A stretch of 64,000 nt of DNA from an uncultured Parachlamydiaceae bacterium (lineage in GTDB: Bacteria > Chlamydiota > Chlamydiia > Chlamydiales > Parachlamydiaceae): the NCBI GenBank assembly GCA_963752155.1, contig CAVVXH010000010.1, forward strand, positions 512,001 to 576,000. The letters run 5' to 3'. The notes beneath the pieces are model-generated. The model saw nothing but the letters and a program-made list of their open reading frames with translations. It was not told the origin of the DNA and did no database searches. Shown piece by piece: positions 23,067 through 29,053 of the stretch. Within the stretch, counting starts at the first letter, position 1. Every line of letters starts with the position of its first letter. The translations under genes were made by a program, and so were the position numbers.

Positions 23067-23071
23067 CATCC

Positions 23072-23111
23072 CCGGAGACATTTTCAGAAATGAAAGCGTT
23101 TCCGGTTTTTT
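23072..23111 (+). terminator. element-supplied hairpin + T-run downstream of tRNA
   Basis: ccggagacatt...gcgtttccgg followed by tttttt. Confidence 0.55.
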
Positions 23112-23187
23112 CATTTTGTAACCCATTGGTTTTCTGCAAGATAATCGCTAATGCTGGATTCAAACCATCGGTTCGATATTTTCCATC

Positions 23188-24297
23188 TTGAAAGAATCAA
23201 TTGATCAGATCATCGCTCACTATCACACTGAAAACAAAATCAATATTCAAGCCACAACTGCAAAGCAGAAAAGAGAACTCATCTCAAGACTGCAAACCAA
23301 AGGATTATTTGATTTTAAGGAATCATCAGCCTACGTTGCCTCTAAACTCCAGATTTCACGAGCAACCGTTTACAACTATTTAAAGACTGCAGCCAACTTT
23401 AGAAAAGTTCACGTTCACCAAGTTGATGCTTTTACAAACGAAAAATTTGGAGGAAACCCTGCAGGTGTTGTTTTGGATGCGGAAGAGCTAGAAGAATCGA
23501 CTATGCGTAAAATTGCCAGAGAATTGAATTTATCTGAAACAGCCTTTGTTTTGTCTAGCGATAAAGGCAATTTCCAGATGCGTTATTTTACTCCAACGGG
23601 ACACGAGATCGCATTTTGTGGACATTCTACTGTGGGAGCACTTTACATGATTGCCAAAGAACGGCGGTTTGGCATTAAAAAGATCGGTGACTATGAATTT
23701 GATGTAAAAACCCTTTGTGGGCTTCTCAAAATGGAAGTGGGGATTAATGATCGTGAGGAAATCTACGTTGCTTATGAGACACCCACAATCAAGTTAGAAA
23801 AAGTCAAAATTACTCACGAAGAGGTTGCGAAGGCTGCGGGCTTTGAATTGCATTTAGTCGATCAATCAATTCCAGTGATGTATGAGGAGACAAATAAAGA
23901 CCTATTTATCGTCATTCGTTCGTTAGATGATTTAAAGAAGATCGAATGTGATCCAAAGTCCTTTGCACAATTCTCTAAGCAGCACGATATTATCGCTTTA
24001 TGCGCATTATCTCCAGAAGCTTTTGATCAAAAAAATCAATTCCACATGCGTTGTTTTGCACCTTTCGTAGGAATCTCTGAAGATCCCTTTACAGGATCGG
24101 TATTAGGAGGACTGACCGCCTATGTCGATACATTCGGTCTTTTGCCAAAAGATTCACATAGTTTTCGGGTAGAGCAAGGTCATTTCATTGAACGGCCGGG
24201 GGTTGTTAAGGTGGAATTTTCAAAAAAACGAGGAAAGTATCACGCTAAGGTTTTTGCGCAGGCTGTGCACTGTTTCTCGACAGAAATTAATCTATAA
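23188..24297 (+). CDS. PhzF-family isomerase with N-terminal HTH (probably 5'-truncated)
   Basis: VASKLQISRATVYNYL HTH; VDAFT..GGNPAGV, NLSETAF, FCGHST, EDPFTGS; TTG start abuts the recombinase remnant. Confidence 0.85.
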   Translation: MKESIDQIIAHYHTENKINIQATTAKQKRELISRLQTKGLFDFKESSAYVASKLQISRATVYNYLKTAANFRKVHVHQVDAFTNEKFGGNPAGVVLDAEELEESTMRKIARELNLSETAFVLSSDKGNFQMRYFTPTGHEIAFCGHSTVGALYMIAKERRFGIKKIGDYEFDVKTLCGLLKMEVGINDREEIYVAYETPTIKLEKVKITHEEVAKAAGFELHLVDQSIPVMYEETNKDLFIVIRSLDDLKKIECDPKSFAQFSKQHDIIALCALSPEAFDQKNQFHMRCFAPFVGISEDPFTGSVLGGLTAYVDTFGLLPKDSHSFRVEQGHFIERPGVVKVEFSKKRGKYHAKVFAQAVHCFSTEINL

Positions 24298-24313
24298 AAA
24301 TAGGGAGGATTGG

Positions 24314-24727
24314 ATGTTTCAATACAAATTAGTAGCGGTTGTAAATAAAAAGATTGAGACGGGCATTCTCATGAATGCTCTTGCACATATGTGTCTAGGC
24401 TTTGGTGCTCATACTGGCCCTACTGAATTGCATCTCATGGACTATAAGAATGCAGAAGGATTTATCTATCCCAATATTTCAAAGATGCCTTTCATCATTT
24501 TGAAGGAGGATAATTCAAATAAAATTGCAAAGCTTCTTATGGAAGCCAAGGAAGCAGGTATTCAATACTCAGTTTTCACAAACACGATGACTGAAGGAAC
24601 ATGGGAGGATCAAGAAGCAAGAACTCTCGCCACTAAGCCGGAAGAGATCGTCTATTACGGAATCGTGTTATTCGGTCCAAAAGAAATCGTTACCAATTTG
24701 ACTAAAAAACTTTCCTTGTTCAGGTAA
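24314..24727 (+). CDS. DUF2000-family protein (PTH2-like fold)
   Basis: RBS ggagg + ATG 24314; MNALAHM, YYGIVLFGPKEIVTNLTKKLSL. Confidence 0.7.
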   Translation: MFQYKLVAVVNKKIETGILMNALAHMCLGFGAHTGPTELHLMDYKNAEGFIYPNISKMPFIILKEDNSNKIAKLLMEAKEAGIQYSVFTNTMTEGTWEDQEARTLATKPEEIVYYGIVLFGPKEIVTNLTKKLSLFR

Positions 24728-24858
24728 TTATCATGAGTAAACGATGGATTACGAATGGATATGGGCGGCAGCCGGTACGCCGTTTGCAGTGTTTCGACTT
24801 CGTTCAAGTGAAATACAAAAAATGACCGATGGAAAATTTATCGATTTAAAGGTAGATA

Positions 24859-25821
24859 ATGGCAAAAATTAATCTTATTCAGGCAAAAGGTAATAGTTTT
24901 TATTGCGACAGTATTTTCTCCATAGGTGTTTACATCATAGAGAGAATGGCTGTGTTGATCGATAGCGGGATCAGCAGGGATATTGCTAAGGAGATTGATA
25001 AATCCTTGATACAAGCCAATTTTCAAGTTGCAGCAATCATTAATACCCATTGTCATGGGGATCATTGTGGGGGGAATGCCTTCTTTCAGCAGAAATATCC
25101 ACAGATAAAAATCTTTAGCACAGAAACAGAAAGGCCGTTTATTGAAGATCCATTGATGGCCCCTATTTGCTTTTGTGGTGGCGCTGCTGCGTTCGAAGAA
25201 ATTAAAAAATGCAAGCCTATCACACCACAGCAAGCCTCTAAAGTCACGGATATCATTGCACCTTATGAAGATCAAAAGATCGTCATATACGGAGAAACAT
25301 TCGAAATCATCGCCTTGCCGGGTCACACTCGTGGGATGATTGCAGTTAAAACACCCGATAATGTTCTTTATTGCGGAGATGCTATTTTTGGGAAAGATAC
25401 TTTTAGAAAATATCCTATTTTGTACTATACCTTCATTGGCGACACACTGAATTCATTTAAAAAGCTTAGATCGTTAATTCCTTCTGTCGACGTTTCCATC
25501 ATTTATCACGGAGGAATGATAACGGACCTGACTTCATTAATAGATGATCACGAAAAGCGTATCCTTGAAACAAAAAATATGATTCTTTCAATGTTGCTTG
25601 AATGCCCTCTTTCATTGGAAGAGATAACTGCAAGAATCATGCAAGCACATAAAATCCCGGACGATCTTATTTCATATGCGCTTACAAAGGTGCCTATGCA
25701 AGCTTATGTTGCCGAATTGGAACGAGAAAATCTCGTTGAAATACGTGTAACAGCCGGTATCAATCGTGCTCATGTGACTGATAAGAATTCTAGCCATCAT
25801 AATTCGGCTGTTATTATGTAG
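24859..25821 (+). CDS. MBL-fold metallo-hydrolase
   Basis: LIDSG, THCHGDHCGG, LPGHT, GDA. Confidence 0.9.
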   Translation: MAKINLIQAKGNSFYCDSIFSIGVYIIERMAVLIDSGISRDIAKEIDKSLIQANFQVAAIINTHCHGDHCGGNAFFQQKYPQIKIFSTETERPFIEDPLMAPICFCGGAAAFEEIKKCKPITPQQASKVTDIIAPYEDQKIVIYGETFEIIALPGHTRGMIAVKTPDNVLYCGDAIFGKDTFRKYPILYYTFIGDTLNSFKKLRSLIPSVDVSIIYHGGMITDLTSLIDDHEKRILETKNMILSMLLECPLSLEEITARIMQAHKIPDDLISYALTKVPMQAYVAELERENLVEIRVTAGINRAHVTDKNSSHHNSAVIM

Positions 25822-27706: not shown

Positions 27707-27883
27707 CCTTCTGCAGTTGCTGTCTATGTGAAAGCAGGTTTCTATGCACTATTAGCCCTGAAACATCAGAAAATCCGATAAGGCGTCGTCTATCTTGGAT
27801 AGAACGACTGAGTTTCCTCGTTTGCTTTTCAATCCCAGTTTTTCCATTCCCCCTATTATTTAATTTCTATCAGCCTTTTCAGA

Positions 27884-28519
27884 TCAACCCAAACCTTCAT
27901 CTATCAAGTTACTGATGAGTAGATGAGCTAACCACTTCTCATACTCGTCTGATGTCCATCCTTGCTCTATGACAAACATACGATACATATCACGACCAGT
28001 CAGAGCCCAGAGGATATCGCGCGCTTTAGTTGCACTAAGGCCTTTAATCAATGAGTTTTCTTTGACCATTGCTTTTATAGTGACTTCTTGGCGATTATAA
28101 CGACGCATTTCTCTTTCCTTTTCGAGCTCTCTAAGCTCAGGAGCTAAGACAGCAGCGCCCCGAAAAATACTCATTTGTGTTCTTTCAGCATCATATATCT
28201 GACGTGCGATTTTAGCAGAAATACTGAGACGTTTCTTAGGCGATTTCTCAATGATACTCTCTTCTACAAGAGCCTCGAATTGATTTTGAGGAAGGGCTCC
28301 GTCCATTAAAGCTCGAAGCACACCAAGTTTAGACTGAAAGAGCGAATAAATGGTGGGAATTGATACGTTTGCTCCTTGAGCAATTTTTTCAATTGTCACG
28401 TATTCAAATCCCTCTGATTCAAAAAGGTTTTTTGCAGAGTTTAAAATACGGGCTCTTGTTTGTCCTGCTTGTGTATCTCTAGCAGTTGATTTATAGGATC
28501 TTTTTTTGATTTCTGGCAT
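27884..28519 (-). CDS. TetR/AcrR family regulator
   Basis: LFESEGFEYVTIEKIAQGANVSIPTIYSLFQSK. Confidence 0.92.
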   Translation of the reverse strand: MPEIKKRSYKSTARDTQAGQTRARILNSAKNLFESEGFEYVTIEKIAQGANVSIPTIYSLFQSKLGVLRALMDGALPQNQFEALVEESIIEKSPKKRLSISAKIARQIYDAERTQMSIFRGAAVLAPELRELEKEREMRRYNRQEVTIKAMVKENSLIKGLSATKARDILWALTGRDMYRMFVIEQGWTSDEYEKWLAHLLISNLIDEGLG

Positions 28520-28525
28520 ATTGGG

Positions 28526-28577
28526 TATAGCTCACTATATTCAATGTTGACTTAATGATTATAGTTTACTATAATCA
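28526..28577. promoter_or_regulatory. divergent promoter with two TATAG-N4-CTATA palindromes (putative TetR operators)
   Basis: tatagctcactata (28526-39); tgattatagtttactataatca (28556-77); TTGACT-17-TATAAT (28547-28575). Confidence 0.7.
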
Positions 28578-28613
28578 ATATTGTTTGTCAAAAACCAGAA
28601 AAAGGAGAAGATC

Positions 28614-28958
28614 ATGAAGACAGATACAAAGGCAATAGGAGTAGCTTATTATACGGCTCTAAGAGAGAAAAATATCGAAAAGGTGAGTAAATACTTACAC
28701 CCTGATATTCAATTTACCGATCCACAGGAAACAGTAATCGGCAGAGAATCAGTACTTAAAGCAGCACGAGGATTCGCAGGGATTTTTAAAACTCTAACAA
28801 TCCGTGCACCCTTTGGTTCAGAAGAGCAAGCTATGATTGTCTATGAAGTAGAGATTCCAGGTCTCTCCAAAAAATTGCAAGCCGCTTCCCTTCTGAGTTT
28901 TCAAGAAGGCCTGATCTCAAAGATTGAGCTTTTCTACGATTCCAAAGGCTTGAGGTAA
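28614..28958 (+). CDS. SnoaL/NTF2-like protein
   Basis: YLHPDIQFTDP..GRE..; FQEGLISKIELFYD; RBS aaggag before ATG 28614. Confidence 0.8.
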   Translation: MKTDTKAIGVAYYTALREKNIEKVSKYLHPDIQFTDPQETVIGRESVLKAARGFAGIFKTLTIRAPFGSEEQAMIVYEVEIPGLSKKLQAASLLSFQEGLISKIELFYDSKGLR

Positions 28959-29053
28959 TAACAGACTATTATGCTAAAGCCAGCAAACTCCGATCAATTG
29001 AACTCCAATCGAACTCGAGAAAAGTTCTGAAACTGTCCGCTGAGGGGCAATTC

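Follow-up and report, generated by a model that had tools for sequence, protein, structure and literature searches.

What becomes of an integrase when integration cuts through its own gene? The question is raised by a 64,000-nucleotide stretch of DNA from an uncultured Parachlamydiaceae bacterium (contig CAVVXH010000010.1, positions 512,001 to 576,000; this whole stretch is referred to as the window), in which remnants of three integrases are lined up behind the only tRNA gene, tRNA-Leu(CAA). The host genome (3.1 Mb) is 80% complete, and the nearest named matches of the proteins and of the contig are from Parachlamydiaceae and other Chlamydiales. The best explanation as a whole, to which a probability of about 0.75 is assigned, is a stack of elements at tRNA-Leu carrying a large serine recombinase (LSR) which is split by its own reaction and which would exist in two enzyme forms. 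The locus itself consists of three stacked dead elements. Because their integrases have been deleted no copy in the window is able to switch anything; the locus is a fossil, and it is the integrase family which is the object of interest.

The array reads tRNA, A body...A tail, B body...B tail, C body..., where body denotes the integrase codons before the crossover and tail those beyond it. Its parts are as follows.

22984..23067, plus strand: tRNA-Leu(CAA), the target gene, identified by ARAGORN; its T-arm and 3' acceptor strand form a putative attB-type half-site, judged by motif position
23064..23065, no strand: att1 crossover dinucleotide GC, between the tRNA half and the element A body arm, at the centre of TCCGG-N6-GC-N6-CCGGA
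23065..23202, minus strand: stump of an A-lineage LSR, the final ~46 body codons, the remainder deleted (limits from the end of homology and microhomology at the joint)
23072..23111, plus strand: hairpin and U tract of the A body arm, a predicted replacement intrinsic terminator for the tRNA (z-score -4.4, covariation)
25948..26085, minus strand: detached A integrase tail of 45 codons, the first ~8 of which form a putative attP-type arm
26085..26086, no strand: att2 crossover GC, between the A tail arm and the B body arm, a cross-lineage, out-of-frame join
26086..26195, minus strand: stump of a B-lineage LSR, the final ~37 body codons, the remainder deleted (end of homology)
26094..26122, plus strand: terminator-like hairpin and U-rich tract of the B body arm
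28969..29046, minus strand: detached B integrase tail of 25 codons
29047..29048, no strand: att3 crossover GC, between the B tail arm and the C body arm
29047..29102, minus strand: element C stump, the final ~18 codons of an A-sublineage integrase (homology)
29054-29095, plus strand: hairpin and U tract of the element C stump (z-score -5.9)

A sequence-only reading of this DNA had proposed that two recombinase C-termini are cut by the att sites and rejoin in frame with distant tails on excision. The minus-strand frames were found as described, 23196-23065 entering the tRNA in antisense and 26195-26086 entering att2, and the tails end at TAG (25948) and TAA (28969). The pieces are indeed recombinase C-termini, but they are deleted remnants and not genes: 18-46 codons are left of each of the three integrases, and homology to intact integrases stops at 23202 (A), 26195 (B) and ~29100 (C). 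At the A deletion joint there is short microhomology with the truncated cargo gene. The third, A-type stump at att3 (29047-29102) had been overlooked. Its 18-residue end is identical to that of intact relatives of the A sublineage at tRNA-Leu (L096, L099, L100 and L130), and a tail scan of the window and 73 kb beyond found no element C tail.

The A piece (23065-23202) shares 86-92% identity with the C-terminal ends of three 532-residue proteins (P0122, P0137 and P0138) with domains PF00239 and PF07508 and, in some, PF13408, while the B piece (26086-26195) is 85% identical to the ends of 491-residue LSRs with the same domain set (P0029 and P0030); E values of homologues to the pieces go down to 1e-22. 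Full-length P0122, P0030 and P0296 all pass the Pfam cut-offs for Resolvase, Recombinase and zinc-ribbon, and all three domains lie upstream of the cut. The NCBIfam cut-offs for CcrA, CcrB, CcrC and XisF were not reached (33-85 bits vs 375-900). That two recombinase lineages use one tRNA target in different frames was borne out, the two LSR lineages being 23% identical over their full length (P0122 vs P0030) and sharing the same tRNA-Leu crossover.

Alignment of homologues across both joins had been named beforehand as the check. Among 64 proteins with the A piece, 12 read through in frame to the A tail (P0136 and P0144-P0146 among them), 44 have tRNA-antisense ends, five end otherwise and three were unparsed. 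Eight of the 67 proteins with the B piece continue in frame into the B tail (including P0230 and P0212); 40 stop immediately or run into a tRNA, an ambiguous class insofar as some A-tail arms start like tRNA, 15 enter an A tail out of frame, one has another end and three were unparsed. Both proposed joins thus occur in nature, as does the suggested exchange of the C-terminal tail on integration, by a few tRNA-antisense residues in lineage A and by a near-immediate stop in lineage B. That this exchange would act as a directionality or stability switch, as had also been suggested, is supported indirectly by the selection, the predicted docking and the degron-like end described below.

The position of the crossover was obtained from the junctions of relatives, which switch at a single GC within TCCGG-N6-GC-N6-CCGGA. 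The central dinucleotide of this imperfect inverted repeat was GC in nearly all mapped junctions, with a few GT, and this GC at the tRNA 3' end is common to lineages A and B, in differing frames. The shared decamer is not a strand-exchange core, only the central GC being common to all three window junctions. GGCACATCCC is found at 23063 and 26084 and nowhere else in the window or the whole genome, and the longer match between att1 and att2 is a similarity between two element arms. The att3 overlap is GGCA only, too short for meaning on its own, and the att3 join rests on homology.

Counted outward from the crossover, an 8-base T-loop motif has shift 0 in the 32 tRNA arms; in the tail arms, 39 of lineage A and 6 of lineage B, the shift is +5. 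A 5 bp shift of the zinc-domain motif is described, in the accessible portion of that source, as the difference between attB and attP in LSRs (PMC3783163). The geometry suggests the tRNA T-arm as an attB-type half-site and the tail arm as an attP-type half-site, with the binding itself predicted. Of 13 outer or unassigned junctions, nine match the recombinase-domain (inner) motif at no more than two of five positions, and the three outer junctions that were tested are hairpins with U tracts resembling native tRNA terminators. The fourth arm looks unconstrained, and recognition would be mainly via the tRNA half-site, which would make repeated insertion at an occupied site possible. Same-lineage tandem junctions suggest directionality rules looser than the usual unidirectional LSR recombination with a recombination directionality factor (RDF). 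In the window the arms of att1, att2 and att3 are still consensus.

Pairing of bodies and tails was examined in 24 arrays with 36 consecutive pairs, 33 of them classifiable; L145 and L147 (duplicates of L092 and L096) and L116, L127, L129 and L132 (weak, tRNA-fragment or inverted junctions) were left out of the count. The next junction after a body carried a tail of the same lineage in 30 of the 33 pairs (22 A-A, 8 B-B; Fisher p 2.7e-5, for loci picked from search matches and with kin not independent). Body and tail of the same junction showed no association (10/26 concordant, p 0.18). Within 22 A pairs the distances between bodies correlate with those between tails (Mantel rho 0.49, 0/5000 permutations, kin again not being independent).

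Several observations indicate that the tail very probably functions as protein. In the 17 codons of the A tail past the DNA-binding arm, the ratio of nonsynonymous to synonymous polymorphism (pN/pS) is 0.26 over 42 nearest-neighbour pairs among 47 tails, against 0.80 +/- 0.24 for shuffled columns (0/1000), and invariant residues are present across 37 A tails. The AlphaFold model of P0296, a distant full-length, tail-bearing protein, has a mean predicted local distance difference test (pLDDT) score of 89.6 and is matched by serine integrase chains from cryo-electron microscopy at E 9e-20; in it residues 484-504 are a low-confidence linker containing the crossover, followed by a tail helix with pLDDT ~89. 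The B-type model, P0025, has tail helices with pLDDT 65-84 and yields no contacts. Predicted docking of the window A tail on the body of P0122 (residues 1-500) scored 0.61, the best control 0.00; this mark is attained by most solved complexes (116 of 157) and by few mismatched pairs (2 of 215). Contact agreement between docking runs was at least 78% and partner pLDDT at least 58. In the predicted contacts, tail residues 7-29 meet three stretches of the body (437-448, which includes a conserved Gly at 444, 461-469 and 488-493), a surface which the helix map of the P0296 model puts at the base of the coiled coil.

The end of the A tail resembles a degradation signal. The pattern K/R-x-A-S/V/I/A/C closes 22 of 37 distinct A tails of at least 40 residues and 0.11% of 1830 long genome frames, in a comparison for which the motif was defined after data inspection and kin are not independent. 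This terminal motif is kept between two subfamilies with 53% identity while the preceding linker is 16% identical, and synonymous variation is present. ALA is the ending of the B tail of the window and of two among the eight natural B joins; one further natural join has ALA plus one residue. The degron-like ending is absent from one A sublineage and from the distant relatives of lineage B. E. coli ClpX is described as reading the ssrA end and the MuA end RRKKAI in the accessible part of one report (PMC8138137). ClpX passes the cut-off in 19 of 20 relatives and was not found in the host genome at its 80% completeness. The putative degron, a resemblance in sequence, is a lead rather than a result.

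The final ~14 body codons, read on the tRNA strand, contain a hairpin followed by a U-rich tract, with z-scores of -4.4, -4.6 and -5.9 in the three arms of the window. Among body arms that pass a score and motif filter, to which the count is limited, a z-score of -2 or lower is seen in 29/29 of lineage A and 22/22 of lineage B, vs 0/40 A and 1/7 B tail arms. An alignment of 24 A arms has 92.9% of its cells paired, and at 8 of the 10 base pairs both sides have changed in a compensatory way. A terminator scan recovered the B hairpin only, missing the bulged A and C stems. The predicted role of the hairpin is likely the replacement of the displaced native tRNA terminator, and it is likely because of this role that just these body codons survived deletion of the integrases.

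These results are combined in the following mechanism. An LSR gene contains its own attachment site, and integration cuts a conserved tail of 25-45 residues off the enzyme. The tail would likely be made only from the excised circle or from a same-lineage tandem junction, and with its predicted docking at the coiled-coil base, the free and the integrated element would possess different enzyme forms. The tail-bearing form may be integration-competent and probably short-lived, the tailless chromosomal one a resting or excision form. Newcomers would insert at the tRNA end and push older elements outward, presumably because the fourth arm may have nearly any sequence; the arrival order would have been C, B, A. 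The body arm would supply a tRNA-strand terminator in place of the native one. Within this mechanism the split architecture is practically certain, whereas for a regulatory role of the tail the chances appear even. A more specific version is tentative and rather doubtful: on the circle the tail helix would clamp the coiled-coil base and license integration, a ClpX-type degron would then remove the enzyme, and integration would cut off both, making the tail a detachable on/off switch. The same tentative version has ~100 bp serving as att site, protein and tRNA terminator at once, with recognition of the tRNA T-arm half-site dominant; unrelated lineages could therefore use one site, each in its own frame, and neither would produce the tail of the other.

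A number of observations weigh against this mechanism. An excised circle was not observed, and none of 19 near-full-length close relatives carries its own tail. The 20 tail-bearing proteins from close relatives are all fragmentary (71-194 residues) and, where the genomic context is available, correspond to tandem junctions (L010/L095, L034/L094); full-length tail-bearing proteins come only from distant relatives (P0296, P0310, P0329, P0015 and P0025). Selection on the B tail is weak (pN/pS 0.39, 45/1000, 7 pairs). The docked pieces belong to one natural polypeptide, and such cases tend to pass by likeness to solved folds. Three of the 33 array pairs are discordant (2 A-B, 1 B-A), one of them explained by a deletion, and the body arms are without a clear +5 motif peak, unlike canonical attP. 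Finally, a MerR-type helix-turn-helix (HTH) gene of ~280 residues adjoins the integrase in 7 of 9 intact A elements scanned. Its product could be a conventional directionality factor, and with such a candidate beside the integrase a tail switch is not required.

The alternative which survives best, though it is unlikely, gives the tail a purely structural part: it would complete a helical bundle, only the circle-encoded enzyme would be active, and the integrated form would be crippled ("suicidal"), excision depending on a copy with a tail, supplied in trans or by a tandem junction. The predicted docking of tail residues 7-29 on the body and the purifying selection on the tail fit this, most integrated copies in relatives are decayed, and the accessible text of McMurdie et al. 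raises the option for DsiB (PMC3146451). The three Pfam domains, however, all precede the cut, many integrated copies keep a full open frame, and conserved degron-like ends are unnecessary for a structural role.

It is improbable that the tail has little weight, the overlap of attP and gene end being an accident of packing, the neighbouring HTH protein giving directionality and the tail being merely harmless. The conserved MerR-type gene beside intact A integrases would be accounted for, as would the wholly different tails of the two lineages and a crossover within a flexible linker, but not the pN/pS of 0.26 past the DNA-binding arm, the residues invariant in 37 tails, the terminal motif kept across subfamilies while its linker diverged, or the predicted docking.

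Quite improbable is a third possibility, in which an integrase encoded elsewhere would move the stumps in trans as live, non-autonomous cassettes, comparable to integron cassettes or cis-mobilizable islands. Consensus arms are retained at all three att sites and the same cargo blocks recur next to tails in relatives; against this, no intact helper integrase was found in the genome (80% complete), whose sole PF07508 match is an N-truncated LSR at tRNA-Asn, the deletion joints cut into cargo genes, and a terminator function is enough to explain retention of the arms. Chance joining of short open frames through a 4-10 base repeat, for which the mere four bases of the att3 overlap could be cited, is already refuted by homologues at E down to 1e-22 and by natural read-through of both joins.

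The self-splitting integrase favoured here has precedents, and integration-driven splitting of a C-terminus is already in print for DsiB, Mx8 and BPs, each represented below by the accessible portion of its source. DsiB is an ssrA-specific serine integrase of Dehalococcoides genomic islands, which lie in tandem and in which its 3' end overlaps attL; its authors considered that the gene is perhaps fully functional only on the circle or beside an island with a 3' fragment (McMurdie et al. 2011, PMC3146451). Both systems share an LSR 3' end overlapping the attachment site and tandem arrays behind a structural RNA gene. The available text on DsiB describes a tmRNA target, a ~20-bp direct repeat, a six-gene module including DsiA, and a divergent C-terminus in which no conserved tail is identified (PMC3146451). 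The present system differs in its tRNA-Leu target, in a common sequence reduced to GC, in having two lineages that read the site in two frames, and in a conserved tail that is under selection and has a predicted docking site. A scan of 48 + 18 element proteins for the DsiA/ParB/Mom module detected neither a further serine recombinase nor ParB or Mom.

The integrase of phage Mx8 is a tyrosine recombinase with tRNA-Asp as its target, and archaeal SSV-type systems have a 'suicidal' integrase. In myxophage Mx8 attP lies inside the integrase gene, and integration creates a new 3' end and alters the behaviour of the enzyme (PMC6070905). The same position of attP and the new 3' end are seen here; unlike the split integrases of the Mx8 and SSV types, those described here have serine recombinase domains and belong to small non-phage elements. 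When mycobacteriophage BPs integrates into a tRNA gene, an ssrA-like degron is lost from the C-terminus and a stop is created by the host base adjoining the core (PMC9262239), which is comparable to the B lineage stopping within two or three codons after integration. In BPs, as far as that source describes it, attP splits the repressor while the tyrosine integrase keeps its tag; here it is the integrase that is split, and the degron is a sequence resemblance.

Domain set, fold, central dinucleotide and, in the tail arms, the 5 bp motif shift are those of canonical phage serine integrases (LI/A118, Bxb1, phiC31), as far as the accessible part of PMC3783163 describes them. Unlike these, attP lies within the gene, the target is a tRNA, insertion at an occupied site is repeated, including same-lineage tandem junctions, and the shifted motif is found in only one attP arm. 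Tycheposons are likewise small tRNA-stacked cargo elements whose newcomers push outward and whose integrases decay (bioRxiv 10.1101/2020.12.28.424599, accessible portion), and a D5/primase gene in one B element is a further likeness. In the same portion tycheposons have mostly tyrosine integrases and duplicate part of the tRNA, and gene splitting is not described. A literature search covering titles and the starts of abstracts, in a collection with few subscription papers, returned no report of serine integrases targeting tRNA genes in which a conserved tail is detached, a site is shared in two frames or a terminator is embedded.

Serine integrases are major genome-engineering tools whose directionality is normally set by a separate factor. 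With an enzyme rewritten by its own reaction, the control of direction by the coiled-coil base could be tested directly. Copies annotated in databases lack the tail, and integration screens that use them may fail. If the enzyme indeed relies mainly on the tRNA T-arm half-site and restores the terminator, it would offer a portable means of adding successive cargoes at tRNA ends. Matches to the A body occur in 68/401 and to the B body in 85/401 genomes of the order, which points to frequent site-specific gene traffic in environmental chlamydiae.

Targets across relatives comprise tRNA-Leu, Phe, Ala and Arg. Near kin of the A integrase were located at tRNA-Phe (L013, L014, L016, L021 and L024, with GG in place of GC at the crossover position), tRNA-Ala (L019) and tRNA-Arg (L118). 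No relative was found among viral contigs with P0122 or an alignment as query, and plasmids gave only distant LSRs, the best matches listed being ~25% identical. Among the sequencing runs listed as matching, none was of RNA and none contained half of the query words. Contigs from 4 of 13 sequencing runs yielded tRNA-to-other-body joints and relatives' cargo, and no identifiable circle junction of the element. In the host genome two more B-type stumps were noted, an N-truncated LSR running into tRNA-Asn(GTT) (G000:C8:143224-144500, L001), with a possible decayed tail ~3.8 kb behind the tRNA, and a decayed copy running into tRNA-Ser(GGA) (G000:C4:94206-94410). A 119-bp element remnant in a relative (L113:4914-5033, equal to L070) has a B tail arm fused to a B body through a shared 10-base stretch, the fusion giving one continuous reading frame that leads from an A integrase to within the tRNA.

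The cargo genes of the window are:

23188..25821, plus strand: element A cargo, a 5'-truncated HTH-PhzF gene, a DUF2000 gene and a hydrolase of the metallo-beta-lactamase (MBL) fold
26702..28958, both strands: element B cargo, an alpha/beta hydrolase (minus), a TetR regulator (minus) and a SnoaL-like protein (plus)
29127..29993, minus strand: element C cargo, an MqsA/SocA-type antitoxin

For the element A cargo a longer, intact copy is present in L094. The MBL-fold gene was considered as a resistance gene and rejected (57 bits vs a cut-off of 100, and under all beta-lactamase cut-offs). The antitoxin gene of element C also occurs inside A-sublineage elements (L094, L107), and homology to relatives on this side ends at ~30123. 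The gene preceding it in relatives (L107:5702-6082) is mostly deleted in the window (29993-30123) and was probably the toxin, leaving the antitoxin orphaned. A scan for sigma-70 promoters was at chance level (19 vs 22.6).

Among relatives, an intact A element at tRNA-Leu (L095:6827-12718) carries a full leucine-biosynthesis-like set (isopropylmalate synthase, isomerase subunits, dehydrogenase and aminotransferase), and an intact B element (L142:1016-3779) resembles a phage satellite in having a SpoVG-like gene and one for a primase-helicase of the D5/P4 type. Cargo of the defence type, namely helicase-associated repeat helicases, type I restriction-modification, AbiEi/AbiEii and RloB, was noted at L100:4850-9424, L099:9715-14085, L107:8494-14426 and L102:4604-6036.

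Other repeats of the window include an IS607 element in two near-identical inverted copies (30738-32997 and 49442-51707), with a transposase passing NF033518 and a TnpB-like partner, and a 300-nt duplication in a miaA-like gene (33391 and 36113) near these copies. A near-perfect palindrome of 166 bp (22648-22813), which resembles a miniature inverted-repeat transposable element, lies 170 bp upstream of the tRNA, and similar long inverted repeats were found at 43919-44097, 57496-57649 and 63179-63328.

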